Of a stretch of DNA of 64,000 bases, positions 1 to 21,690 are shown piece by piece. Positions within the stretch are counted from its first letter, which is position 1. Each line of letters starts with the position of its first letter. Location of the stretch: assembly GCA_015055975.1 (NCBI GenBank), contig SVHF01000002.1, positions 2,225-66,224 of the forward strand. The letters run 5' to 3'. The position numbers were made by a program, and so were the translations under genes. Below the pieces are notes generated by a model. That model was not told the origin of the DNA, did not search any database, and was given only the letters and a program-made list of their open reading frames with translations. This DNA comes from Clostridiales bacterium (GTDB taxonomy: Bacteria; Bacillota; Clostridia; Christensenellales; UBA3700).

Positions 1-1
1 T

Positions 2-532
2 ACTTTGCTTGTAGATTTTTTAAATAATAAGCAATACGATAAAGCTTTAAATTATCTTCAAGAGCATGGTGCCATTATAGATAGCATGACAATTAAGCAA
101 TACTGTAAAAACTATACAGTTAACTGTTTGCTTTCTTCGTATATTCAAAGAGCAGAAAAGGCTGGCATTAAGGTAGAGTGCCATGCGGATATTCCAGATG
201 AACTAAACATTGATGATTTAAAACTTGCGTCACTTTATGCAAACCTAATTGAAAACGCTATAGAAGCATGTGAAAGAATAAAGGATGAAACAATAACAAA
301 GTTCATTAATGTGCAAACTGCATTTGAGAATGGAACCCTAAGAATATTAATAGAAAATTCTGCAAACAATGATGTTAAATTTGATGGACCATTCCCAATT
401 TCCCAAAAGGCAAATCCAAGTGGTATTGGTACAAAGAATATTTATGAACTTGCACAACAATATAATGGACTTTGCGATTATTCTTTAGCAAACGGAATAT
501 TTACAGCAAGATTAATTTTGGTGGTTAAATAG
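2..532 (+). CDS. Sensor histidine kinase, C-terminal GHKL ATPase portion (5' end outside window)
   Basis: The frame is open to the window edge. LYANLIENAIEA (N-box-like) and PSGIGTKNIYELA (G-box-like) match the HATPase_c_5 domain of AgrC/ComD/LytS-type kinases. The stop TAG (530-532) overlaps the GTG of the next gene. Confidence 0.7.
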   Translation, partial: TLLVDFLNNKQYDKALNYLQEHGAIIDSMTIKQYCKNYTVNCLLSSYIQRAEKAGIKVECHADIPDELNIDDLKLASLYANLIENAIEACERIKDETITKFINVQTAFENGTLRILIENSANNDVKFDGPFPISQKANPSGIGTKNIYELAQQYNGLCDYSLANGIFTARLILVVK

Positions 533-1422
533 TGGATTCAAATAACACATTAAGGATATGTAAAAGTTATAAAGAACGTTTTGATAAACTTACAACGCTT
601 ATGGAATATCCTGAATTTAATGTGGATTATAACTTTTCAAAAAAGTATTTAAAAGAATTATCTGATATAAAGCCAATAGTAGATTTATACAATACGTATT
701 TAGAATTTTCAGATGAAAAAGATAGAGATTTAATAATTCAAGATATAAATAAAGAACTTTTAAAGGGAAGACATGATGAATACGATGGTATAGTCATTGA
801 GGTTTACTCTAAAGATAAGGAAGCAGCAAACTTTGTACTTTCTTCATATTTCAATTATTTTAAATCTAATGAATATAATGTGGATTTACAAAAAGACAAA
901 TTGATTGTATTTGGAGCATCGATATATTCTTTGTATAAAGTTGAGATGGGAACCCATATCTATTTGAATCATAAAGAAGCACAAGTGCAGGTATTAGTAT
1001 TGCCTTATAAAGATGTAAACGACTATACAGTATCTCTAAGGGATTTAAAGGTCGATTATTTCCACTCATCTGGCGCAGGCGGACAAAATATTAATAAAGT
1101 AGAAACGGCCGTTAGAATGACGCATAAAGAGACGGGAATAGTTGTTCAGTGCCAAGATGAAAGATCTCAATTGCAAAACAAGCAACGAGCATTAGAACTT
1201 ATTTCTAAAAAAGTTCAAGATTATTATGCTAAAAAGATAAATGATGATATCTCAAAAATTAGAAAAGATAAAAAATTATTGCAAGCTACAGTAAGAGTGT
1301 ATGATTTAACTAAAAATGAGCTATTTGAAACGCGCACGCAAAAGAAATATAATATTAGTGACGTGTTTATGGATAAACTTAGCGAAATAGATAGTGAGAT
1401 TTTAGTTAATGGAATTAAATAG
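532..1422 (+). CDS. Class-I peptide chain release factor paralogue with GGQ retained and decoding loop degenerate
   Basis: SSGAGGQNINKVETAVRMTHKETGIVVQCQDERSQLQNK (GGQ at nt 1078-1086) is a classic RF-1 domain. The N-terminus (ERFDKLTTLMEYPEF) aligns with the RF1 PCRF domain. No PxT or SPF motif is present. GTG start at 532 (taGTG coupling); the alternative in-frame ATG is at 601. Confidence 0.8.
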   Translation: MDSNNTLRICKSYKERFDKLTTLMEYPEFNVDYNFSKKYLKELSDIKPIVDLYNTYLEFSDEKDRDLIIQDINKELLKGRHDEYDGIVIEVYSKDKEAANFVLSSYFNYFKSNEYNVDLQKDKLIVFGASIYSLYKVEMGTHIYLNHKEAQVQVLVLPYKDVNDYTVSLRDLKVDYFHSSGAGGQNINKVETAVRMTHKETGIVVQCQDERSQLQNKQRALELISKKVQDYYAKKINDDISKIRKDKKLLQATVRVYDLTKNELFETRTQKKYNISDVFMDKLSEIDSEILVNGIK

Positions 1423-3826
1423 CGTAATCAATTTAAATATAGATTCAAATTTAACTATTCTTTCAGATCAATCTAGAATTTTCAAAACCGAGCTTTTTAT
1501 AAAACAAACAAAAGGGCTAAAAGGCGTAGACAGATTCTTAGAGAAAATATCTGATGGGATTTTACTTTCGCTAGATAAAAAGCAAGTTGATTTAAATGAT
1601 GCATATATCATTACATTGATGGAAGGGCAAAACTCTATCTTTTTCAAGTTCGGGAAAGCCGTTTTGAATCAAAAATGTAAAGATGCAGATATCGTTTTTT
1701 ATAAATTCATAACAAAAGATGAAATCAAAAACGAAGATAGAAGATTAGTTCGTGCTATCCAAAAAGAAAATATCTCAATATCTATAAAGAAGATCAAAGA
1801 TTTAGAAAAGGAAGCTTTTTCAAAGTTATATATTTTATCTAATGAAGATAAGGTTAACTTGCCACTTTTAAATAAAGAACAAGAAGAATTAGTTACAAAA
1901 GAAAACGATAACATAATTATCCAAGGTGTTGCTGGAAGCGGAAAGACTAATATATGTATAGACAGAATAGTTTATGCAGCTGCAAGAAGATATAGAGGAA
2001 AGATTCTATACAGCACTTATTCACATGCGCTATTACAGGATACTAAAAACAAAGTATCGTTATTTAATAGCAACATTAAAGATTTTGCTCAAAAGCTTAA
2101 AGATAAAAAAGTTCAATTTATTGGCAAGAACAAAAAGGTTGCTATAGAAAATAGATTGGGTATTTGGCTAGATGTTGATGCTGAAGAAAACATCATTAAA
2201 GCACTTCAAGAGATGTCTACATATTTGGAAACAAAAGTTGATTATATGCTTATTGAAGATCTATATAATAGCATTCAAAAAAGCAATAAGGAATTCGATA
2301 ACGAGAAAGAATTTGTCAATACATATTTAAAAAACATCAAAAATTATAATCTAAAGAGCAATATAGACAAGATATCCCATATCTCATATGAAGTTATATA
2401 TAAAGAAATATACGGGCTTATCTTTGGGTATGCAAAAGATGGCACTTTAGATATTATATCTTTGGATGAATATATAGATTTAAGAAAAGAAAGCTTTACA
2501 AAACAAGAAGCAACAATAATCTATATGATTGCTAAAGATTATCAAAAATACCAAGAGCAAAAAGGCATTATAGATAATAATATTGCGTCAAGATATATAC
2601 TTTCTAAAGCAAACTCAATAGATAAATATTCACTTTGTGTTTTAGATGAGGTTCAAGACTTTACTCAAATCAATTTAAATATGTTCAAGTCTATATCATA
2701 TAAGATGTTCTGTGTTGGTGATGCGCTACAAATGATTAACCCTGCATATTTTTCATTTGCATATCTAAAGAGGTTAATGTTTGAGAATAACTATATAAAT
2801 GTTACTGAGCTTAAGAACAATTATAGAAACTCAAAAAAGATAGAAAAGATAGTAGATAATTTGAGCGAATTAAATATAGAACAGTTTGGAACGCATAGTT
2901 TTGTGCTTAGAGGAAAGAGCGTTGATGACGATATGCTTGCAAAAGTTATATATGTAAATGATGGAAATTTCCAAGAAACAATAAAGAATAAAGCATATTC
3001 AGATGTATCAATAGTTGTTGGTTCAAAAGAAAAGAAACAAGAATTAAGAAAGATTCTTCCAAAGCAGGAAATATTAACCATATCTGAAATCAAAGGGCTT
3101 GAAAGAAACTTTGTAATACTTTTAGACATCCTTTCAGATAATTATCAAAAGTGGGATGTTTTAAGAAGAACAATAATAAGCAAGAAAAAGGCAGAAGAAA
3201 ATTCTGTTTATAGATATTATTTCAACCTATTCTATGTAGGTCTTACTCGTGCAAAACAAAATCTATTTGTAATCGAGAAAAAGCAAATTGAATTATTCAA
3301 AGATTTCTTTAATCAAAATTTTGAAAGCTTAGGAAATAAAGCAGCGTTTGATTTATTGGAATCTATTGCAAGTAAAGTTGATTTAGATAGAGACGAAATA
3401 ATAGAGCGTATAGAAGAATTTATTAAGCGTGAGCAATATGATAACGCAAGAGTGCTTTTAGATAGATTAGATAAAGACGATGCGCGTTTACAAGGAGCAA
3501 AGATAGATATATACGAAAAGTATGTATCAAAAGATAAAAATAGAGAAGCAGGTGTTGAGCTTTGGAAAGCTGGTCTTTTAAACGATGCAAAAGAGCAATT
3601 TAGAATATCTCATGATGAAAAGCTTATTGATTTAATAGATGCCTGTGAAACCAATGGTTCAAATCTAGAATATGACATCGTTGAATTTTTCGATGAGGTA
3701 AAAGATAACGATATTGCAAGACAATTAATTCTAGATACATTAAAAGAAGATTTAGAAAAATTAAAAAATGACCAAAACAAAATTATTAATAGCATAAATA
3801 AGAGGAGAACAAAGTATGGAAAATAA
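1409..3826 (+). CDS. UvrD/Rep-like SF1 helicase-family NTPase with unknown N-terminal (~170 aa) and helical C-terminal (~170 aa) extensions
   Basis: Walker A GVAGSGKTN (GSGKT at nt 1934-1948), motif II VLDEVQDF, motif III VGDALQMI, motif IV NYRNS, motif V IKGLERNFVILLD, motif VI FYVGLTRAKQNLFVIE. Overlaps the upstream gene by 14 nt. Confidence 0.75.
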   Translation: MELNSVINLNIDSNLTILSDQSRIFKTELFIKQTKGLKGVDRFLEKISDGILLSLDKKQVDLNDAYIITLMEGQNSIFFKFGKAVLNQKCKDADIVFYKFITKDEIKNEDRRLVRAIQKENISISIKKIKDLEKEAFSKLYILSNEDKVNLPLLNKEQEELVTKENDNIIIQGVAGSGKTNICIDRIVYAAARRYRGKILYSTYSHALLQDTKNKVSLFNSNIKDFAQKLKDKKVQFIGKNKKVAIENRLGIWLDVDAEENIIKALQEMSTYLETKVDYMLIEDLYNSIQKSNKEFDNEKEFVNTYLKNIKNYNLKSNIDKISHISYEVIYKEIYGLIFGYAKDGTLDIISLDEYIDLRKESFTKQEATIIYMIAKDYQKYQEQKGIIDNNIASRYILSKANSIDKYSLCVLDEVQDFTQINLNMFKSISYKMFCVGDALQMINPAYFSFAYLKRLMFENNYINVTELKNNYRNSKKIEKIVDNLSELNIEQFGTHSFVLRGKSVDDDMLAKVIYVNDGNFQETIKNKAYSDVSIVVGSKEKKQELRKILPKQEILTISEIKGLERNFVILLDILSDNYQKWDVLRRTIISKKKAEENSVYRYYFNLFYVGLTRAKQNLFVIEKKQIELFKDFFNQNFESLGNKAAFDLLESIASKVDLDRDEIIERIEEFIKREQYDNARVLLDRLDKDDARLQGAKIDIYEKYVSKDKNREAGVELWKAGLLNDAKEQFRISHDEKLIDLIDACETNGSNLEYDIVEFFDEVKDNDIARQLILDTLKEDLEKLKNDQNKIINSINKRRTKYGK

Positions 3827-4529
3827 CGAAGTACAATCTTTAATTAGCGCATTTAAAGGGTATAGAGATCTATTGAGTCCTATACAAACATCGTTACATG
3901 AGCTTGCAGATACATATTCTTCAATGGAAGCTGATCTAGATAAGCTTTCTCAAGCATTCAATGGAGATGCGAAAACAAAATTAAATCAAATCTATGATAA
4001 CTTAGCGACTCAGTCTAAAAAGTCGCAAGATTTGGCATCGGCTATCGATGAGTTTTTGAAGAGCAGTTCAAAATACATTTCTGATGTATCAAAGATTTCT
4101 TCTAATCTATCTGCATTTGAATCTAAAATTGCTGCTCTAAATGAAATAGAAACAAAAACTCAAGAGCAAATGAGAAGACTAGATACATTAATTGAAGAAA
4201 AGAAAATAAACTATAACGTTAAAGATTTAGAAAGAGCTCTTGATTCATACAATAACAATGTTCAAAAAGTTAGTGATTTCATTAATAAAGATGTTGCGCA
4301 ATCTTTAAATGAAACTTCAAGAAAGGTAGATGCTATTAAAAAAGATTCTGAAGTTTTGGCAAAACAAATTAAAGATGAGCATGGTTCCGTTGAAGAACTA
4401 TGTGCGACATTTAAATCTACAAATACGCTTTTAAAGAGCGTTGTAGAAAAAGAAGACGTTAATGAAGAATATATCTTCTCAATTCTAGATAAATGGGCAA
4501 ATGAAAGAGGAGTGAAGATTAAAAAATAA
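3816..4529 (+). CDS. Hypothetical all-helical/coiled-coil protein (237 aa)
   Basis: ORF with SD aagaggag upstream. Composition is rich in heptad-like E/K/L/S. Overlaps the helicase-like gene by 11 nt and the next gene by 1 nt. No motif recognised. Confidence 0.5.
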   Translation: MENNEVQSLISAFKGYRDLLSPIQTSLHELADTYSSMEADLDKLSQAFNGDAKTKLNQIYDNLATQSKKSQDLASAIDEFLKSSSKYISDVSKISSNLSAFESKIAALNEIETKTQEQMRRLDTLIEEKKINYNVKDLERALDSYNNNVQKVSDFINKDVAQSLNETSRKVDAIKKDSEVLAKQIKDEHGSVEELCATFKSTNTLLKSVVEKEDVNEEYIFSILDKWANERGVKIKK

Positions 4530-6352
4530 TGTTAGAAGATATTGAAAGCGAAATATTTAATGCCATTAAGGCAGATGATATAAAAAGCTTTGAAACACAC
4601 GTAAGTAAGGGCGCTGTGTTAAACATATCTTTTGGCAGATTCCCAATACTATCTCTTTGTTATTTGTATAATGCAAAGAAAATTATTGCAAAATATGAAG
4701 ATAGATTATTAAGTATCTCAACCTATACACGTGTTGAAGAAAATTTAGAGATGTATACGCTTTTCAAACAAAAAGCAGGGAGAATGTTGCGTATATATGC
4801 AGGTAAAGATAATATAATTCATCCACTTGAAATGCTAGCTATATTAAATCAAGCATCAAGATTGGAAAGTGTATATGCTAAAGCTTCAAAGACAAATAGA
4901 CAAATAGAAAATATAAAGCTTATTGAATCTATTAAACAATCTAAAGAAGTAAAAGCAACCGAAACAAAGATAGTTATGCCAAAGCAACCGCTAGACAAAA
5001 ACTTATTAAAGATGGCAGTAGCTTTCATGGCAGTATTTTTAATTGTAGCAATTGTATTTTCTGGCCTTGCTGTATATATCAATTACTTAGGAAATGGAAG
5101 CGAAGAAAGACCATATCGGGTCGTTTCATATAGCCAATTGAAACAAGCAATAAATGATAATGCATATATCGTTTTAAATAAGGATATAGATGTTGATGAA
5201 ATATCGTTTGAAGAATTCGGTGGAGTTATAGATGGCAATGGACACACTATAACAATTTCTAATCAACAAGCATCGATGTTTAAATCTCTATCTGGAACGA
5301 TTAAGAACTTGAATATAAATATAAAAGCAAATGTTGAATCAAATGTTGAATTTGGTCTTATATCGTCAAATCTAAAAGGATCTATTAATAGCGTCAATAT
5401 AGAAATTAATGGATCGATGAAATATACAGGAAGCGCTTCATCTGGCATGATATATTTTTCAACTTTGGCTATTACGAATGAGGGAAATATTTCAAATGTT
5501 AATTTAAAAGGAAATATTGATGTTATTGGAAATGGCAATAATGATGTTGTGTATGGTGCTGTTGCTAATAACAAATCAACAATTGAATATATAACTATTG
5601 ATTGTAATGTGAATCTTTCAGAAGTAAACGGCGCAAATGTTTCTTATTTAAATCAAGGAAGTATTGAAAACGCAATTAATAATGGAAAGGTTATACAAAC
5701 ATCAAATGCATACAATTGCGATTTATTAGTATCATCAATTGCTGTTGAAAACTATGGGACAATAAAGAATTGCCAAAATAATGGAGAATTGGAAATAGAT
5801 GCTATAAACGAATCTGGAGTATATTCGCGAATCGGTGGTATTGCTTGTACAAATACAAAGCTAATTGAACATTGTAAAAATACAGGGAAGATTATTTGCA
5901 ATGCAAAATATACTGTATTTGTGCTAGGTGGAATCTCAGCCATTGGCGATAGGTATTATCAAGATGAATTACCAACATATAAAGAATGTGCATCGTGTGG
6001 TGATGTAGAAATAAGCGTTGAAGATTCTAGATCTATGGGCTATATAGGTGGTATAGTTGGTGGCTATGATAATTATGGCTATATAGATTTTGTAGATAAC
6101 TATTCAATAATGGATGTTAATACAATTGGTGAATATAATTTATTGCTAATTGGTGGTATGGCAGGACTTTGGCCAAGCAATGGAACGCTTGCTAACAATG
6201 CGTATTTATTCACAACAGCCGTTCTTCATGGATTGTATGTGCGTCGCAATTATTTTATTGAAGTTAAATATGAAGCATATGATTCTGGAGATGGAATGTT
6301 TGCAGGGTATACTAAAAAAGAAGATATAGAAAAATTGGAGATTTATTGGTGA
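4529..6352 (+). CDS. Single-pass membrane protein with an ankyrin-like N-terminal cytoplasmic region and an extracellular GLUG-motif repeat (beta-helix-like) domain
   Basis: TM helix LLKMAVAFMAVFLIVAIVFSGLAVYINYL. Repeated G-x-I-x-N / GGI(A/V/S)G segments (IGGIACTN..IEHCKNTGKI, LGGISAIG, IGGIVGGY, IGGMAGL) are characteristic of GLUG motifs. Confidence 0.6.
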   Translation: MLEDIESEIFNAIKADDIKSFETHVSKGAVLNISFGRFPILSLCYLYNAKKIIAKYEDRLLSISTYTRVEENLEMYTLFKQKAGRMLRIYAGKDNIIHPLEMLAILNQASRLESVYAKASKTNRQIENIKLIESIKQSKEVKATETKIVMPKQPLDKNLLKMAVAFMAVFLIVAIVFSGLAVYINYLGNGSEERPYRVVSYSQLKQAINDNAYIVLNKDIDVDEISFEEFGGVIDGNGHTITISNQQASMFKSLSGTIKNLNINIKANVESNVEFGLISSNLKGSINSVNIEINGSMKYTGSASSGMIYFSTLAITNEGNISNVNLKGNIDVIGNGNNDVVYGAVANNKSTIEYITIDCNVNLSEVNGANVSYLNQGSIENAINNGKVIQTSNAYNCDLLVSSIAVENYGTIKNCQNNGELEIDAINESGVYSRIGGIACTNTKLIEHCKNTGKIICNAKYTVFVLGGISAIGDRYYQDELPTYKECASCGDVEISVEDSRSMGYIGGIVGGYDNYGYIDFVDNYSIMDVNTIGEYNLLLIGGMAGLWPSNGTLANNAYLFTTAVLHGLYVRRNYFIEVKYEAYDSGDGMFAGYTKKEDIEKLEIYW

Positions 6353-6353
6353 C

Positions 6354-6575
6354 ATGAGGGAAGATAAGGCTAAATTTGTATTACGTATCTCGATTTTAAC
6401 TATTTTGGCAATTGATGCTATAGCAATAATTGCTGCGATTGTTTTTGGCATTTTATTGGGAATAGGGGCGATTCTACAATCTAAAATAATGATAATAGCC
6501 GCAATTGTTATCGCGGCCATAAATGTCTTAGAAATCATATTGATTCCTATTGTTCTAAATAAATATAAAGGTTAA
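6354..6575 (+). CDS. Small hydrophobic protein (73 aa, about two TM helices)
   Basis: ATG lies 1 nt after the stop of the GLUG protein gene. Ile/Ala-rich TM segments. Its 3' end overlaps the convergent TetR gene by 4 nt. Confidence 0.4.
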   Translation: MREDKAKFVLRISILTILAIDAIAIIAAIVFGILLGIGAILQSKIMIIAAIVIAAINVLEIILIPIVLNKYKG

Positions 6576-7174
6576 TTATTTAAAATATGTTCTATGCTAG
6601 ATATAACTAGTTCGCTCATATATCCATAGTCGATATATTCATGTTTGTCATATAGATATTCATGAGCATAAGATTGAACAATATCCATAATTAAATGAAC
6701 TTTATCTGTTAGGTGGTTTTTGTTAAAACCTAATTCTTCAAGCTTTTTAGCACCAACTTCAGTAAGTAGCTTTTCTAGTTCCATAAATTCTTCATTGATA
6801 TCGTTGTGAGTATCAGCAAGCGAGTGAAGAATGTTATGAAGATTTGCATTAGTGTGGTGAATCTTAATAGTAATAGTTAATAAAGATTTAGCAAGTTCGT
6901 GCGCACTAATTGGACCTTGGTTAGAATCTATAAAATCAAATAGTGGCTTTTTTACATCTTCAATATATATTTTAATTACATAAAACAAGATGTCTCTTTT
7001 GTCTTTAAAGTAACTATATACAATACCAGTAGAAACTCCAGCAGCTTTTGCAATATCTGCAGTATTGGTGTTGTAATATCCAACATCTGAAAATACTTTA
7101 TAAGCAGCATTGATTATTGCTTCTTTCTTTTTAATAGCTCTATCTTGTTGAGGTTGTCTAATGCTTGTGTCCAT
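6572..7174 (-). CDS. TetR/AcrR family transcriptional regulator
   Basis: N-terminal HTH AIINAAYKVFSDVGYYNTNTADIAKAAGVSTGIVYSYFKDKRDIL is typical of TetR_N. Confidence 0.85.
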   Translation of the reverse strand: MDTSIRQPQQDRAIKKKEAIINAAYKVFSDVGYYNTNTADIAKAAGVSTGIVYSYFKDKRDILFYVIKIYIEDVKKPLFDFIDSNQGPISAHELAKSLLTITIKIHHTNANLHNILHSLADTHNDINEEFMELEKLLTEVGAKKLEELGFNKNHLTDKVHLIMDIVQSYAHEYLYDKHEYIDYGYMSELVISSIEHILNN

Positions 7175-7820: not shown

Positions 7821-10123
7821 AGAGATTTGCATTAGCAGGAAACCCAAACTGTGGTAAGACAACATTGTTTAACTCTCTAACTGGTGCTACAGCTCACGTT
7901 GGTAACTGGCCAGGCGTTACAGTTGATAAGAGAGATGGTGTATACAAAAAGTGTGCAGAACCTGTTCAAATTGTCGATTTGCCAGGTATTTATTCATTAT
8001 CACCATATACACCAGAAGAAGTAATCGCAAGAAATTACATTCTAGATGAAAAGCCAGATTGCGTCATCAATATCGTTGATGCTACAAACTTGGAAAGAAA
8101 CCTATATCTAACAACTCAAGTATTAGAAATGGATGTTCCAGTCGTTGTTGCTTTAAACATGATGGATGCTGTAAAGAAAGCTGGCGATTCTATTAACGCA
8201 AAACTTTTGGAAGAAAGATTAGGCGTTCCAGTTGTTGAAATTTCAGCTCTAAAAGAAACTGGTTTAAAAGAATTAATGGATAAAGCTTTCAATGAAAGCA
8301 AGAAGATTAGAGAAGGACAAACAGTTCTTGAAACATCACCACTTGGTCATTTAATTGGAGATGTTAAGATCGCTCTTAAAGGACAAAATGTAGCAAATCC
8401 ATTATTCCATGCAGTAAAGCTTGTTGAACAAGATGAAATTGAAGCTGAAATGCATAAAGAAACTCTTCCAATGGTTGAAGATTTCAAAAAGACTTATAAC
8501 GATGATATCTTTGGAACAGATTTTGAAGCACTAGTTGCAGATGCAAGATATAAATACATATCTTCAAATTTCGCATCAGTTCTATCTAAGAAGTCTAAAG
8601 ATAAGACACAGATGTCTAAGTCAGATAAAGCAGATAAAGTATTGACACATAAGTGGTGGGGTATTCCTATTTTCTTACTAATACTATTCGGTATATTCCA
8701 CTTAACATTCGGTGAAGATTTACTATACTTAGGTAAGATTTTCTCATTGCCATCACTAGAAGATTTAGGTTTATTAGATGAAGATGGTGAAGCAATTAAC
8801 TTTGGTGTAAGAATCTTGGCTACATTCTATGATGGAGCCGTGATGTCGCCGGGCGTTTGGATTAACAACGTTTGGAACGACTTAATCGTCGGCGAATTCT
8901 TTGGATGGCTAGGTGGCATTGTAGAAGAAAGCGGCATGGCACCATGGGCAATCGGGTTAATTAACAACGGTATATTTGATGGTATTTCAGCAGTTCTATC
9001 ATTCTTACCACCAATCTTAGTATTATTCTTATTCTTCTCAATTTTGGAAGATTCAGGATATATGGCAAGAATTGCATTCATTCTTGATAGAATGTTCAGA
9101 AGATTTGGATTATCTGGTCGTGCATTTATGCCTATGATCATGGGCTTTGGATGTTCAGTTCCAGCTATGATAAATACAAGAACTTTGGCAGATGATAAAG
9201 AAAGAACAGCAACAGTTAGAGTTATCCCATTCTTCTCATGCGGAGCAAAACTTCCAATTCTTACAGCCGTAGCAGGTGCAATCGTAGCATTCTTCGGAGT
9301 AGGTAATGCAGATGTTATAACATTCTCTATGTATGTATTAGGTATTGTTACAGCTATCGTATGCGTATTGTTAATGAGATCAACAACTCTAAAGGGTGAA
9401 ACACCTCCATTTATTATGGAATTGCCAACATACCATATGCCACAATTTAAGAATTTGATGGCTCACCTTTGGGATAAGACAAAGCACTTCGTAAAGAAAG
9501 CTTTCACAATTATCCTTGCATCAACAATCGTAATTTGGGCGTTAACACACTTCAGCTTCAACTGGACATTCCTAGAAGACGAACAAGTAAATGAAAGTAT
9601 CTTAGCTGGTATTGCTCAATTAGTACAACCAATCTTTACTCCACTTGGATTTGGTTCTCAATTAGGACAATATGGTTGGGTATTTGTAGTAGCAGCTGTT
9701 GCTGGTTTAATCGCAAAGGAAAACGTTATTGCTACATTCGCAACATTGGCAGCATGCTTAATGGCAGTAGTTGGACTAGACTTTGGTGAATTAGCAATTG
9801 ATGCAGAAGATGGTATCGATGCTGTACAAGCTATGATCCAAGCAACAGGTATAACAATTCCAGGTTTGATTGCGTTTATCGCATTTAACATGACAACTAT
9901 CCCATGCTTTGCAGCAGTAGCTACAGCCAAAGCTGAATTAGGGAATAAGTCAACATACCACTGGACGTTAGTATTCTGGTTAGTTGCATCATATGTAGTA
10001 GCAGCAATAATATACACAGTAGGTTCTTGGTGGTGGACAATCTTCATCTGGGCAGTAGTATGTGCAGGTGTAGTAGGATGCATCATCTGGAGAAACAAAA
10101 TGGCAGCAAAGAGGTTGAACTAA
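7817..10123 (+). CDS. feoB: Ferrous iron transporter FeoB
   Basis: N-terminal G-domain MKRFALAGNPNCGKTTLFNSLTG..VGNWPGVTV..DLPGIYSL followed by a polytopic membrane domain. Start moved to ATG 7817 (SD ggagg); the track start at 7793 lies inside feoA. Confidence 0.95.
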   Translation: MKRFALAGNPNCGKTTLFNSLTGATAHVGNWPGVTVDKRDGVYKKCAEPVQIVDLPGIYSLSPYTPEEVIARNYILDEKPDCVINIVDATNLERNLYLTTQVLEMDVPVVVALNMMDAVKKAGDSINAKLLEERLGVPVVEISALKETGLKELMDKAFNESKKIREGQTVLETSPLGHLIGDVKIALKGQNVANPLFHAVKLVEQDEIEAEMHKETLPMVEDFKKTYNDDIFGTDFEALVADARYKYISSNFASVLSKKSKDKTQMSKSDKADKVLTHKWWGIPIFLLILFGIFHLTFGEDLLYLGKIFSLPSLEDLGLLDEDGEAINFGVRILATFYDGAVMSPGVWINNVWNDLIVGEFFGWLGGIVEESGMAPWAIGLINNGIFDGISAVLSFLPPILVLFLFFSILEDSGYMARIAFILDRMFRRFGLSGRAFMPMIMGFGCSVPAMINTRTLADDKERTATVRVIPFFSCGAKLPILTAVAGAIVAFFGVGNADVITFSMYVLGIVTAIVCVLLMRSTTLKGETPPFIMELPTYHMPQFKNLMAHLWDKTKHFVKKAFTIILASTIVIWALTHFSFNWTFLEDEQVNESILAGIAQLVQPIFTPLGFGSQLGQYGWVFVVAAVAGLIAKENVIATFATLAACLMAVVGLDFGELAIDAEDGIDAVQAMIQATGITIPGLIAFIAFNMTTIPCFAAVATAKAELGNKSTYHWTLVFWLVASYVVAAIIYTVGSWWWTIFIWAVVCAGVVGCIIWRNKMAAKRLN

Positions 10124-10299
10124 TGGGTGTTTTAGAAATAATACTAATAGTTGCGTGCGCCGCAATAGTTATAGGTGTAATAACAGCATCAATAATTAAA
10201 AAGAAACAAGGCAAATGTTCTTGTGATTGCGGAGGAGATTGCGCTCATTGCGCAGCCTGCATGGCAGCTCAAAAAAAGAAACAGTCAAAAAATATATAA
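10123..10299 (+). CDS. FeoB-associated Cys-rich membrane mini-protein
   Basis: MGVLEIILIVACAAIVIGVITASII (TM) followed by KCSCDCGGDCAHCAAC. The ATG overlaps the feoB TAA (taATG). The 90-aa ORF in the track is an upstream extension inside feoB. Confidence 0.75.
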   Translation: MGVLEIILIVACAAIVIGVITASIIKKKQGKCSCDCGGDCAHCAACMAAQKKKQSKNI

Positions 10300-10449: not shown

Positions 10450-11067
10450 ATGGGACTTATTAAAAAATACATGAATCAAACAAGAAAGCCAAATGGATTT
10501 TTAGGCAAGATGATGCTTAAAGGAATGAACATGGGACACGCTAAGCTTTCTGACTTTGGAATATCAACTCTTCCAAATAGGGAGTTTTTTAATATTGCAG
10601 AACTTGGCTGTGGCGGTGGCAGAAATATTGATGCGCTATTAAACAAATACTCAAAAGCAAGAATAGTTGGTGTAGATTATTCGCCACTTTCTGTTGAAAA
10701 AGCAAAAGAATTTAATAAAAAGAACATGTCTCGTTGCGAAATTAAACAAGGTGATGTATCAAAGCTTGATTTGCCTAAGAATAAATTTGATCTAGTTACA
10801 GCGTTTGAAACAATTTATTTTTGGCCAAATATTGACAAATGTTTCAAAAACATTTTTGAGATATTAAATGATAATGGTTATTTTCTTATTGTAAATGAAC
10901 TTGAAGGAGAAGATAAATCAAGTTTGAAATACGAAGAAATGATAGAAGGATTAAAGGTATATAAGATTGTTGAACTAGAATGCATTTTAAAAGATGCAGG
11001 ATTTAGTGAAGTAGTAGTAAATAAAGCTCAAGGGAAGGCATGGTTTTCAATTGTAGCAAAAAAATAA
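10450..11067 (+). CDS. Class I SAM-dependent methyltransferase
   Basis: Motif I AELGCGGGRN, then VGVDYSP..., and the post-I/II pattern DLVTAFETIYFW. Confidence 0.8.
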   Translation: MGLIKKYMNQTRKPNGFLGKMMLKGMNMGHAKLSDFGISTLPNREFFNIAELGCGGGRNIDALLNKYSKARIVGVDYSPLSVEKAKEFNKKNMSRCEIKQGDVSKLDLPKNKFDLVTAFETIYFWPNIDKCFKNIFEILNDNGYFLIVNELEGEDKSSLKYEEMIEGLKVYKIVELECILKDAGFSEVVVNKAQGKAWFSIVAKK

Positions 11068-11076
11068 AGGTGGGAT

Positions 11077-11325
11077 ATGAATAAATATATCATAGGTATT
11101 GATGGAATGATGTGTGGGATGTGTGAAATGCACGTCGAATCAAAAATCAAGGAAAGCTTTGTAGTAAAAAAAGCAAAAGCTTCACATATTACAAATAAAG
11201 TAGTTGTAATTACTGAAGCAAATCTTATAGAGGATGATTTTAAAGCAGCTTTAGATCCAACCGGATATAGAGTAACATCTTTTGAAAAGCAAGCTGCTAA
11301 AAAGACACTTTTAGGATGGAAATAA
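11077..11325 (+). CDS. Heavy-metal-associated (HMA) domain metallochaperone-like protein
   Basis: GIDGMMCGMCEMHVE contains the GMxCxxC metal-binding motif. 82 aa with ferredoxin-like HMA size. Confidence 0.8.
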   Translation: MNKYIIGIDGMMCGMCEMHVESKIKESFVVKKAKASHITNKVVVITEANLIEDDFKAALDPTGYRVTSFEKQAAKKTLLGWK

Positions 11326-11326
11326 A

Positions 11327-12118
11327 ATGGTAGATATAGCATATCCAATAATTGGTATATCTTTGATATTTATATGTACAACATTGGGTGCATTATTGGT
11401 ATTTTTTGTAAAGAAAGAAGTATCTCCAAATATGAATAAGATATTCATATGATTTGCTGGGGGTGTAATGTTTTCTGCATCTTTCTTTTCTTTAATAAAG
11501 CCAGCTCTTGAATCTAATGTTACATATCTGCCAGCTTGGGTAATTGTATCTATATCTATTATTTTGGGAGCAGCGTTTTTATGGTTAATAGATAAGCTTG
11601 TTCCTCATTTCCACGCAAATGTTAATAAAGAAGAAGGTCTATCTTCAAGAAAACTTTCTAAAACATCTAAGATGTTTTTGGCTGTTACAATTCATAATAT
11701 CCCAGAGGGACTATCTGTTGGTATAGCTTTTGGCGTTGCGCTATCTCAAGCAAATAACGCATCTTTATTAATGGGTGCATTATTATTGGCAGTAGGAATT
11801 GGTATACAAAACATTCCAGAAGGAACGGTTGTATCTTTGCCAATTAAAGGGGAAACAGGTTCATCTCCTAAGGCGTTTTTGTTTGGGATGTTATCTGGGG
11901 CGGTTGAACCAATTGCTGCAGTTATTGGATTGTTTTTAGCTATGCAAATACAAGGTATAATGCCGTGGGCATTAGCTTTTGCGGCTGGCTGTATGATATA
12001 TGTGGTTGCAGAAGAAATGATTCCAGAAATGACAAGTGAAGGTCATAATCATTATGGAGTTTGGGCATTTTGCCTAGGCTTTGTAATAATGTTGGTTTTA
12101 GATTGCATACAGTTTTGA
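11327..12118 (+). pseudogene. zupT: ZIP-family zinc transporter (ZupT/GufA-like) interrupted by an in-frame TGA at 11450-11452
   Basis: ATG 11327 opens MVDIAYPIIGISLIFICTTLGALLVFFVKKEVSPNMNKIFI-TGA-FAGGVMFSASFF..., in the same frame as the 11468-12118 ORF. Two HNIPEG/QNIPEG motifs are present. The total of 263 codons matches ZupT length. The stop sits where ZupT homologues have Gly (SLGFAAGIM). Confidence 0.8.
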
Positions 12119-12162
12119 CATAATTTATTTCTTTCATAATTATGCTCCGATATGACCAAGGG

Positions 12163-12200
12163 ATACATTGTAGGTTTTATTATCTGCAATGTATTTCATT
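12163..12200 (+). terminator. Putative terminator after zupT
   Basis: Stem acattgtag/ctgcaatgt (extendable with wobble pairs), 8-nt loop, then atttcatttt. Confidence 0.45.
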
Positions 12201-12227
12201 TTAAACGAATGCATTATTTATATAATG

Positions 12228-12236
12228 TGTTATAAT
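12228..12236 (+). promoter_or_regulatory. Extended -10 element (TGtTATAAT) upstream of the glycosyltransferase gene
   Basis: The sequence tgttataat lies 39 nt upstream of ATG 12275. No good -35 was seen. Confidence 0.35.
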
Positions 12237-12274
12237 GGTATAGGCTAAATGGGGTTAAGCAAAGGAGATTTTAA

Positions 12275-13453
12275 ATGGAGCAAAAGCCAAAAGTACTATT
12301 AACGTATATCGAGTCAGGTATGGGGCATATTACTTCTATGCAATCTATTAAAGAAGGATTACAAAAGTATGCGGATGTTCTAGATATAAAAGAAGATTTT
12401 ATAATGCGACATAATACGTCAGCTAAAATCTACGAAAAATTTATTACAAGAGAGTGTGCTAACTGCGTTAAGCATCCATTATTTGGAACATTCATGTTCT
12501 GGTTTTTTGATGTAATTGGCGGTATTGAATCTTTAGCAGCACTTCATCACTCAATTTTCTATGTAGCATATCACGCTATTATGAAACACTTCGAAGAAGA
12601 AAAACCAGCAGTAATTATAAGCACTCACTATTTTGTAACTTATGTTGCTGTTAGATATAAAATGAAGCACGATCCAAATTGTATCGTCATTACATATAAC
12701 CCAGATAACAATGTTCATATGTGGTGGGATGGAAGAGAAGGCTTATTCTTAGTTAATAACGAAACAGCAAGACAAGAAGCTATTAACAAGAGAAAATTTG
12801 ATCCAGAAAGAGTTATAAACGTTGGATTTAGCAAGAGAAAGGAAGTTGTAGATTGTACAGCTACAAAAGAAGAATTAAGAGATAAATATAATCTTCCACA
12901 AGATAAATTTACAGTTCTTATAGCAGATGGAGCATACGCAGTAGGTCGTTCTAAGGATTTCTGTAGACATTTACTTTGGACAAAGAAAGATATAACAATT
13001 ATTTACCTTGCAGGTAAAAATATTAAAAAGCATTACTACTTCTTAAAGAAAAAGGCAAAGCTTGAAAAGAAAGGAAGAACAAATATTGACTTTAGAATCC
13101 TTGAATTTACACCAAAGATTTATGAATATTATAAAGCTTGCGATTTGGTTATCACAAAGGCAGGCCCAAATACACTTTTGGATTGCTGTTTAGTTGGTAC
13201 ACCATTTATCGCAAACCTATTACCTCAACCAATGGAAAAAGCTGCTTATCAATTATTTGTTAAAGATAAGAAGTGTGGTATGGGCGTATTTAGAGATTGG
13301 CAAATTCAAAAAGTTGTTGAGCATATCATAGATTGCCCAGAAACACTTGATGAATATAAAGAAAATATGAAATATTTCCAAAACATGCCAAATGGTGTAG
13401 AAAAGATTTCACAAGTAATTGAATCAGAATTGAAAAAGCAAGGACTTATTTAA
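12275..13453 (+). CDS. GT28-type glycolipid glycosyltransferase (UgtP/MGDG-synthase-like)
   Basis: N-terminus KVLLTYIESGMGHITSMQSI and C-terminus DLVITKAGPNTLLDCCLVGTPFIANLLPQPMEKAAYQLF parallel B. subtilis UgtP (MITKPGGITLTEA..GVPVILYKPVPGQEKENANFF). Confidence 0.7.
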   Translation: MEQKPKVLLTYIESGMGHITSMQSIKEGLQKYADVLDIKEDFIMRHNTSAKIYEKFITRECANCVKHPLFGTFMFWFFDVIGGIESLAALHHSIFYVAYHAIMKHFEEEKPAVIISTHYFVTYVAVRYKMKHDPNCIVITYNPDNNVHMWWDGREGLFLVNNETARQEAINKRKFDPERVINVGFSKRKEVVDCTATKEELRDKYNLPQDKFTVLIADGAYAVGRSKDFCRHLLWTKKDITIIYLAGKNIKKHYYFLKKKAKLEKKGRTNIDFRILEFTPKIYEYYKACDLVITKAGPNTLLDCCLVGTPFIANLLPQPMEKAAYQLFVKDKKCGMGVFRDWQIQKVVEHIIDCPETLDEYKENMKYFQNMPNGVEKISQVIESELKKQGLI

Positions 13454-21600: not shown

Positions 21601-21690
21601 TGGCGGAGAGCGCGAGATTTGAACTCGCGGTACGATTGCTCGTACACAGCATTTCGAGTGCTGCACCATCGACCACTCGGACAGCTCTCC
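21601..21690 (-). tRNA. tRNA-Ser (anticodon CGA), encoded CCA
   Basis: The reverse complement reads GGAGAGC-TGTCCGAGTGGTCGATGGTG-CAGCA-CTCGAAA-TGCTG-(long variable arm TGTACGAGCAATCGTACC)-GCGAG-TTCAAAT-CTCGC-GCTCTCC-G-CCA. It has a 7-bp acceptor stem, a T-loop TTCAAAT and a class II long variable arm. Confidence 0.9.

Follow-up and report, generated by a model that had tools for sequence, protein, structure and literature searches.

A conserved cassette of gut Clostridia links the gene for a release-factor paralogue without the stop-codon-reading loop to genes for an SF1 helicase and membrane proteins

According to a 2019 census, the release factor (RF)-type hydrolases of bacteria comprise RF1, RF2, ArfB, and PrfH only, none of them with a helicase partner, and codon-blind RF paralogues such as PrfH have been linked to biological conflicts (PMC6514570). 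Two further reports describe PrfH as rescuing ribosomes damaged by ribotoxins (PMC9304027, PMC12829566). Here, we examine a stretch of 64,000 nucleotides (nt) from a Clostridiales bacterium (GenBank assembly GCA_015055975.1, contig SVHF01000002.1, positions 2,225 to 66,224 of the forward strand), referred to as a whole as the window, which carries near its left end a tightly packed cassette of five genes. These encode an RF-like protein (RF), a superfamily 1 (SF1) helicase (HEL), a helical protein of 237 amino acids (aa; CC), a membrane protein of 607 aa (BIG), and a small transmembrane (TM) protein (SM). The RF-like protein keeps the catalytic GGQ domain of RF1 and has lost the loop that reads stop codons, and the order of the genes is preserved in some 40 species. 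L-numbers below denote recovered loci; L001 is a 101-kb metagenome contig that bears an identical RF-like protein and reaches further upstream.

Six successive open reading frames (ORFs) lie on the + strand at 5..532, 532..1422, 1409..3826, 3816..4529, 4529..6352, and 6354..6575. The junctions consist of taGTG at 532, overlaps of 14 nt, 11 nt, and 1 nt, and finally a gap of 1 nt. All of these are exactly as given in a first-pass annotation made from the letters alone, and its domain assignments were confirmed too (as HATPase_c_5, RF-1, UvrD-type, helical, ankyrin/TM/GLUG, and a hydrophobic mini-protein). The family scan placed UvrD-helicase, AAA_19, and UvrD_C_2 of Pfam above the cut-off in the third ORF, returned generic coiled-coil matches only for the fourth and a single weak Glug match for the fifth, and gave no match for the sixth. 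The same annotation had seen no internal promoter or terminator. This stands insofar as promoter-like matches within the operon (53 vs 58.8 in shuffled sequences) and terminator-like matches (4 vs 3.5) are at chance level; however, an internal promoter may lie at the 3' end of the RF gene, because one promoter-like match of 11/12 is found there (window about 1325-1353). The G+C content of window 1-6000, the cassette region, is 0.29-0.30, slightly below that of the rest of the window (0.31-0.37).

The RF-like protein (532..1422, + strand, 296 aa) is an RF1-derived paralogue, as judged from the Pfam RF-1 match (E 1e-27) and alignments with RF1. Its domain 3, the most conserved part of the protein, is essentially RF1-grade (SSGAGGQNxNKVETAxRxTHxxTGIxVxCQDERSQLxNK), and the GGQ stretch, SSGAGGQNINKVETAVR...CQDERSQLQNK, aligns with RF1 and is conserved across all cassette RFs. 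The PxT tripeptide and the GRIHTS stop-codon-reading loop that follows it are gone, removed by a deletion of 7-10 residues in all of about 40 members; relative to RF1, the GTGGEEA loop is also shorter, and the region of the switch loop is changed. Family members range from 282 to 345 aa and keep an N-terminal PCRF-like domain (a weak PCRF match), with domain 1 shortened by about 28 residues in the window's clade. Judged by sequence, the prerequisites for a putative stop-codon-independent rescue activity are thus present, that is, GGQ is kept and the decoding loop is lost.

These proteins form a small family well separated from canonical RF1, and the membership tests place the window's protein in none of RF1, RF2, PrfH, and ArfB. 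Against the RF1 equivalog models it reaches 122.1 bits where 400 are required (NF001859, NCBIfam prfA) and 114.9 where 423 are required (TIGR00019), and the curated prfB cut-off is likewise missed by far. The PrfH model TIGR03072 gives 69.6 bits vs a cut-off of 166.65, and the N-terminal domain is present; for ArfB, the score is 46.7 bits vs 100, in a protein of 296 aa with domains 1, 2, and 4. RtcB is absent from all of about 60 loci, the operon partner being the helicase.

The product of 1409..3826 (+ strand, 805 aa) is a divergent SF1A helicase or translocase of UvrD/PcrA-like type, with a PF00580 (UvrD-helicase) score of 31.6 bits vs a gathering threshold of 23. Its GxAGSGKT (Walker A), DExQD, VGDxLQMxNP (motif III), and YVGxxRA (motif VI) motifs are invariant in 14 diverse members, and 14/14 match both UvrD and viral SF1 RNA-helicase Pfam models. 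The best relatives in the PDB are PcrA, UvrD, and HelD, with similarity confined to the ATPase motifs; profile searches of the PDB with the N-terminal (1-150) and C-terminal (about 636-805) domains returned nothing below E 0.2. PADLOC adds matches of GajB type that are weak and partial (best E 2.5e-9), and a GajA-like (OLD ATPase-nuclease) gene, which a Gabija system would have, is absent from the cassette and its flanks.

The 237-aa protein (3816..4529, + strand) is cassette-specific, all-helical by its alignments and its AlphaFold2 (AF2) model, and the best conserved component. Its length is nearly constant (236-243 aa), and it combines a long helical hairpin (~80-residue) with a conserved basic C-terminus. 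The model places helices at 3-46, 52-132, 135-211, and 217-231, with a mean pLDDT of 69. A profile search found 107 representatives of the family among 1.84 billion (1.84e9) representative proteins, and 243 clusters occur among 5.8 billion proteins, every one of them "hypothetical" or unnamed. Foldseek gave no significant fold match for the model; at the top of its results stand PspA, Vipp1, and ESCRT-III (E 0.2-0.9). A PspA/IM30/ESCRT-III identity was considered and rejected, there being no PF04012 or other Pfam hit and no significant fold match. Membership in Zorya fails as well, as ZorA matches the coiled-coil protein with only 19.8 bits and the membrane proteins have no PADLOC hit.

Encoded at 4529..6352 (+ strand), the 607-aa protein is a single-pass membrane protein according to its AF2 model (pLDDT 92.5, pTM 0.72) and Foldseek. 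The model comprises an ankyrin-repeat N-domain (1-137), a TM helix (157-187), and a right-handed beta-helix (196-595). Foldseek matches the beta-helix to the GLUG beta-helix of IgA1 protease (prob 1.0) and the N-domain to DARPins (prob 0.6-0.9). The ankyrin domain has many invariant residues and is more conserved than the beta-helix, in which only structural Gly/Asn are conserved; the ankyrin domain is cytoplasmic, and the weakly constrained beta-helix, of GLUG type, is extracellular.

The last gene of the operon (6354..6575, + strand) encodes a hydrophobic small membrane protein of 73 aa. A 19-residue hydropathy scan returned one merged segment, the protein being hydrophobic throughout, and two TM helices may be suggested for it. 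Its alignment shows semi-conserved D/N and N..E inside the hydrophobic segments. ORFs of 73-88 aa, homologous or similarly placed, follow BIG directly in at least 22 loci, which is only part of the carriers.

A scan of a genome collection seeded with the 237-aa protein recovered 44 species-level genomes, 43 of which are titled uncultured Clostridia, Eubacteriales, Christensenellales, Christensenella, or Bacillota; the exception is a bin labelled Ruminococcus bicirculans. The carriers come from animal and human guts. HEL-CC-BIG is found wherever the extent of the contig permits, and the RF gene stands directly upstream in about 90% of loci, usually with a 4-nt overlap with the helicase start. 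The order RF-HEL-CC-BIG is constant in about 40 species with unrelated flanks, so that the synteny on which the first-pass annotation had staked its operon holds in relatives. Because this order recurs so widely and the start/stop overlaps are retained, the arrangement is not due to chance.

Relatives whose RF is 59, 55, 46, and 34% identical possess the same seven-gene operon beside luxS, that is, the five genes preceded by a two-component system (TCS). At greater distance, L018 (RF 30% identity) has RF-helicase-237 aa-717 aa-74 aa, without a TCS and in another neighbourhood, and a very remote member (profile E 3e-28) has helicase-239 aa-662 aa (Glug)-83 aa. The TCS is confined to the window's narrow clade. 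Since most carriers lack any TCS, the cassette of five genes (or at least HEL-CC-BIG) came first and acquired the TCS later, in a single narrow clade, which reverses the earlier view of a cassette appended to a kinase.

A literature search for an RF-like protein together with helicase, defence, GLUG, or ankyrin gave nothing relevant. PADLOC v2 matched no catalogued system, with no hits for RF, BIG, and SM and only generic ones for HEL and CC; the suggestion that the locus is not a known defence system is borne out to this extent. More generally, the combination, which the first-pass annotation could not relate to a described system, has no counterpart among catalogued defence systems, curated families, solved structures, or the papers of the library searched. 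The parts come from known superfamilies. Undescribed are the RF family, the 237-aa family, and their assembly.

Selection on the cassette was assessed as dN/dS by the Nei-Gojobori method in the closest locus pairs. The values are 0.02-0.10 for HEL and CC, 0.07-0.17 for RF, 0.12-0.17 for the beta-helix, and 0.13 for the small protein (L032/L033), within an overall range of 0.02-0.20 for RF, HEL, CC, BIG, and SM. All five genes are under purifying selection, with no gene-wide positive selection. In every syntenic pair, BIG has diverged most, followed by RF and SM, then HEL and CC, and the flanks least; at the level of single proteins, conservation is highest in RF domain 3, the ankyrin domain, and the helicase core. 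The contrast between flanks at 87-95% and RF/BIG at 34-59% identity had raised the idea of a hypervariable or ancient-allele locus at a fixed site. This was rejected because synonymous sites of the flanks are also saturated (LuxS pS about 0.65); these are comparisons between species, in which constraint is simply weaker on the cassette proteins.

In 25 species, the cassette is flanked by a total of 130 genes with ordinary metabolic or housekeeping roles, and flanks common to several lineages are consistent with vertical descent. No copies were found among the viral contigs of IMG/VR or the plasmids of PLSDB. A defence island or mobile element was rejected given the housekeeping flanks and the lack of viral or plasmid copies; the PADLOC hits in the flanks (mad3, mad8, AriA, and AbiLi) are attributed to ABC and SMC-type ATPases found by Pfam in the same neighbours.

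Two further cautions concern apparent losses. In L074 (6514-16514; FeoB 93% identical), rsmI, cysS, cysE, argS, ychF, and plsY adjoin tetR in place of the cassette, which could reflect either an empty site or a rearrangement. A presence/absence polymorphism at the tetR-feoB site was not accepted, as the right flank of the cassette varies in other carriers and L074 is thus no proof of absence. Likewise, the split helicase and kinase genes of L005-L007 are not signs of gene decay; they are caused by 100-N scaffold gaps (L005 4458-4557, L006 2574-2673, and L007 6493-6592).

The first base of the window already lies inside a gene, that of an AgrC/HPK10-family histidine kinase, of which the 3' end is seen at 2..532 on the + strand (176 aa of 436; HATPase_c_5 E 6e-16). 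Its 5' part and the gene of a LytTR response regulator lie upstream, outside the window (L001 797-2820). The order in L001 is luxS (- strand), the regulator (238 aa), the full kinase (436 aa), the five genes, and tetR (- strand), and the transcription unit in the window's clade most likely comprises seven genes and begins upstream of the window.

The first-pass annotation had described the kinase as AgrC-like and had expected a regulator, and possibly a peptide precursor, upstream. The LytTR gene is there, and the full-length kinase has six predicted TM segments. However, among solved structures it is related to the AgrC catalytic domain alone (4bxi, E 2e-4), the regulator gives full-length yet sub-threshold matches to BtsR and AgrA, and both score far under the AgrC/AgrA equivalog cut-offs. 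Because the AgrC match is limited to the catalytic domain and the regulator matches are sub-threshold, "AgrC-like" holds only at the family level. Genes for AgrB, AgrD, a peptide precursor, or bacteriocin-like products are absent in or beside the operon, which is bounded by luxS and tetR, and for this reason a quorum or peptide signal is unsupported at this operon.

The leader of 210 nt upstream of the regulator contains a promoter and a repeat box only. The promoter (L001 743-772) matches the sigma-70 consensus perfectly (TTGACA-18-TATAAT) and lies 25 nt ahead of the start codon of the regulator gene, and a direct repeat, TGGCAA(A/T)A ... TTTGGCAA, abuts the -35 on its upstream side (L001 709-735). 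TGGCAA-N14-17-TGGCAA is present in exactly one copy, at a distance of 60-90 nt before the start of the regulator gene, in 12 TCS-bearing loci (L001, L002-L004, L013-L017, L020, L022, and L076); it is missing or different in L005-L008, L009-L011, and L021. It does not occur in the 64-kb window, where 0.1 copies would be expected by chance. By analogy with boxes of the AgrA/ComE type, the repeat is a candidate binding box for the regulator, and the layout is as one might expect of a LytTR-regulated, apparently autoregulated promoter. Rfam revealed no leader RNA or riboswitch upstream of the cassette in the window and seven other loci. In the sub-lineage of L009 (145-1709), L010, and L011, a LytTR regulator directly precedes the RF gene and there is no histidine kinase, making it an orphan regulator.

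The wider surroundings deserve a brief record. On the right, the operon ends against a convergent tetR (6572..7174, - strand), followed by feoA-feoA-feoB. Window 10027-10299 (+ strand) is listed as a 90-aa ORF with a TTG start; its ATG-start C-terminal 58 aa have a hydrophobic N-terminus and a CSCDCGGDCAHCAAC motif and match a 58-aa gene that immediately follows feoB in L001. Small ORFs of 53-57 aa are likewise called directly 3' of feoB in L002, L005, and L012. Window 21601-21690 (- strand) holds a tRNA-Ser(CGA), the sole RNA gene detected in the window, and Rfam at its gathering threshold gave no matches in the window.

Among other carriers, an ABC exporter pair (ABC_membrane and ABC_tran, about 586 and 592 aa) follows the cassette immediately, on the same strand, in several lineages (L015 16189-19654, L021 9493-12965, L022, and L043 13440-16975) and is nearby in L041, L044, L053, and L061. 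This could be a loose functional association or merely reflect how common such pairs are. L015 (5951-7339), L016, and L017 have a 462-aa SLFN_AlbA_2/HATPase_c_4/HTH_24 gene that is flanked by proS and luxS and lies shortly before the operon. In L018, a ThsB_TIR plus 8xMP (Thoeris-like TIR) gene at 239-1159 (- strand), about 9 kb upstream of the TCS-less cassette, is the sole defence-type neighbour noticed. L044 has a PadR-family regulator gene (5026-5568) before its cassette, which is without an RF gene, and a long Rel/SpoT (p)ppGpp synthetase-hydrolase gene (10947-13091) after it.

How might such proteins work together? We tentatively favour a reading in which the five genes encode one membrane-tethered machine for stop-codon-independent peptide release and ribosome clearing. 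Because stop-codon reading has been lost, the RF must be directed by something other than the codon; as a codon-blind GGQ peptidyl-tRNA hydrolase, it would be sent to ribosomes by a stalled, empty, or damaged A site, or by its partners. The SF1A helicase would supply ATP-driven remodelling, for example, stripping of the mRNA or splitting and clearing of the ribosome after release. The 237-aa hairpin protein would bridge RF and helicase to the cytoplasmic ankyrin domain of the 607-aa protein, and the extracellular beta-helix, with its small TM partner, would place or gate the activity at the cell envelope, possibly passing a signal from outside to inside. In the window's clade, the cassette has come under an AgrC-family/LytTR TCS that is apparently autoregulated.

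Several points weigh against this proposal. The physical link among the cassette proteins is putative, and the global confidence of the 237-aa model, the putative bridge, is low (pTM 0.27). The helicase is of the UvrD/PcrA (DNA) type, with terminal domains that have no detectable relatives, so that an RNA or ribosome substrate is putative. The purpose of an extracellular beta-helix of 400 residues is explained neither by a rescue function nor by any of the rival readings. Finally, RF is missing from three cassettes (L023, L028, and L044), in which HEL-CC-BIG is apparently self-sufficient. A substitute effector was sought there and dismissed, as upstream one finds only an MBG surface protein, an AMP-binding enzyme, and a PadR regulator. 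With neither RF nor substitute in these three, the irreducible core is HEL-CC-BIG, to which RF is nearly always attached. The fullest form of the proposal, in which these paralogues are a fifth bacterial class-I RF family and the catalytic subunit of a membrane-tethered "release-and-clear" machine that has its own SF1 helicase and couples events at the surface or at translocation sites to stop-codon-independent termination, is doubtful for the present.

The same gene set can be read as abortive-type immunity against phages or competitors, in which the beta-helix senses phage adsorption or a toxin, the signal passes through ankyrin domain and coiled coil to the helicase, and the RF as effector halts translation by premature release of nascent chains. 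The layout of membrane sensor, coiled coil, helicase, and effector does resemble membrane-anchored defence systems, the helicase has the weak GajB-type hits (E 2.5e-9), and RF and ectodomain are the least constrained parts, as expected of those that contact an adversary. HPK10/LytTR pairs often control bacteriocin and immunity loci, and such a pair controls the cassette in one clade. PrfH-like codon-blind RF paralogues are, moreover, linked to conflicts (PMC6514570). We nevertheless consider immunity unlikely, above all because of the apparent vertical inheritance of the cassette between syntenic housekeeping flanks in several lineages. Its 130 neighbours are metabolic or housekeeping genes and form no defence island, IMG/VR and PLSDB hold no viral or plasmid copies, PADLOC identified no system and GajA is absent, dN/dS is well under 1 throughout, and the RF-less variants have no alternative effector.

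Stable chromosomal inheritance and purifying selection speak for repair or rescue of damaged ribosomes, by analogy with PrfH-RtcB. The RF would free ribosomes jammed by ribotoxins or antibiotics, the helicase would clear damaged RNA, the membrane proteins would sense or bar entry, and the TCS, predicted to confer inducibility in one clade, would induce the response. Like PrfH, the RF keeps GGQ, has a remodelled domain 2/4, and does not read stop codons, and PrfH is reported to act on ribotoxin-damaged ribosomes (PMC9304027, PMC12829566). This is rather improbable all the same: the cassette encodes no RNA ligase, kinase/phosphatase, or other repair enzyme, the RF has none of the membership features of PrfH, no ribotoxin is known for these bacteria, and damaged RNA is only a putative substrate of the helicase. 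One may also place translation outside the core altogether and regard HEL-CC-BIG as a membrane-anchored DNA or RNA translocase, serving uptake or export or a HelD-like recycling of RNA polymerase, with the RF a dispensable accessory or a non-ribosomal esterase. The three lineages with HEL-CC-BIG and no RF speak for this, as do the nearest solved relatives of the helicase, namely PcrA and UvrD, which are DNA helicases, and HelD, which recycles RNA polymerase, and the membrane-remodelling PspA/Vipp1/ESCRT-III folds at the top of the (non-significant) list for CC. Yet RF is present in about 90% of cassettes, is translationally coupled, and has an RF1-grade catalytic domain under purifying selection; the cassette contains no channel-forming protein, and outside the ATPase motifs the resemblance to HelD and PspA does not exceed chance. 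We therefore hold a non-translational core to be very improbable.

The proposed release-and-clearing machine is directly testable, since its parts are well defined: the GGQ domain can be mutated, the helicase motifs are intact, the model of the ectodomain is of high confidence, and a regulator box accompanies the promoter. If the proposal is correct, the cassette would physically connect ribosome and cell envelope, which is rarely seen, and, in the fullest form of the proposal, would be a convergent bacterial counterpart of the membrane-associated ribosome quality control of eukaryotes; translation would gain a new way to end, through a further codon-blind family with its own helicase and a membrane protein shaped like a receptor. 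The cassette also marks a lineage, the gut Clostridia of Christensenellales type, an abundant and health-associated group with hardly any experimental work to date, and it points to unexplored biology there.

Comparison with known systems is best made part by part. The 607-aa protein shares the right-handed beta-helix fold (and a weak Pfam Glug hit) with the GLUG beta-helix of streptococcal IgA1 (M26) protease, but has no protease domain or conserved catalytic residues and is joined by an N-terminal TM anchor to a cytoplasmic ankyrin domain. The regulatory genes resemble HPK10-LytTR systems of the Agr/Blp/Com type in the polytopic kinase with HATPase_c_5, the LytTR regulator, and the direct-repeat box just upstream of the -35; they differ in lacking AgrB/AgrD, a peptide precursor, and a bacteriocin gene, and one sub-lineage lacks the kinase. 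The helicase has the ATPase core and all SF1A motifs of UvrD, PcrA, and HelD, including GajB, whereas its terminal domains are unique, a GajA/OLD nuclease is lacking, and its gene is translationally coupled to that of an RF paralogue.

As regards the RF itself, RF1 (PrfA) is the best sequence relative, with a near-identical domain 3 around GGQ and a recognizable four-domain layout, but the cassette protein is without PxT and the GRIHTS loop and has altered GTGGEEA and switch loops. ArfB, ICT1, and C12orf65 (mtRF-R) likewise depend on GGQ for release without codon recognition, and mtRF-R also has a dedicated partner; in contrast to the cassette RF, they consist of a small GGQ domain plus a basic tail, without domains 1, 2, and 4 (about 140 aa in ArfB). 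PrfH is, like the cassette RF, a class-I RF paralogue that keeps the GGQ domain, has a remodelled domain 2/4, does not decode stop codons, and is operon-encoded with an RNA-directed enzyme as partner. It differs in having no domain 1, a length of about 200 aa, and the RtcB ligase as that partner, where the cassette has an SF1A helicase and membrane proteins.

Beyond bacteria, the analogy is one of parts. UPF1 with eRF1/eRF3 is one such module, and Vms1/ANKZF1 is another, uniting a release-factor-fold hydrolase, ankyrin repeats, a coiled coil, and the p97 ATPase at a membrane. These eukaryotic surveillance modules have the eRF1 fold and no homology to the cassette, whose parts are instead split over separate proteins, one of them with a large extracellular domain.

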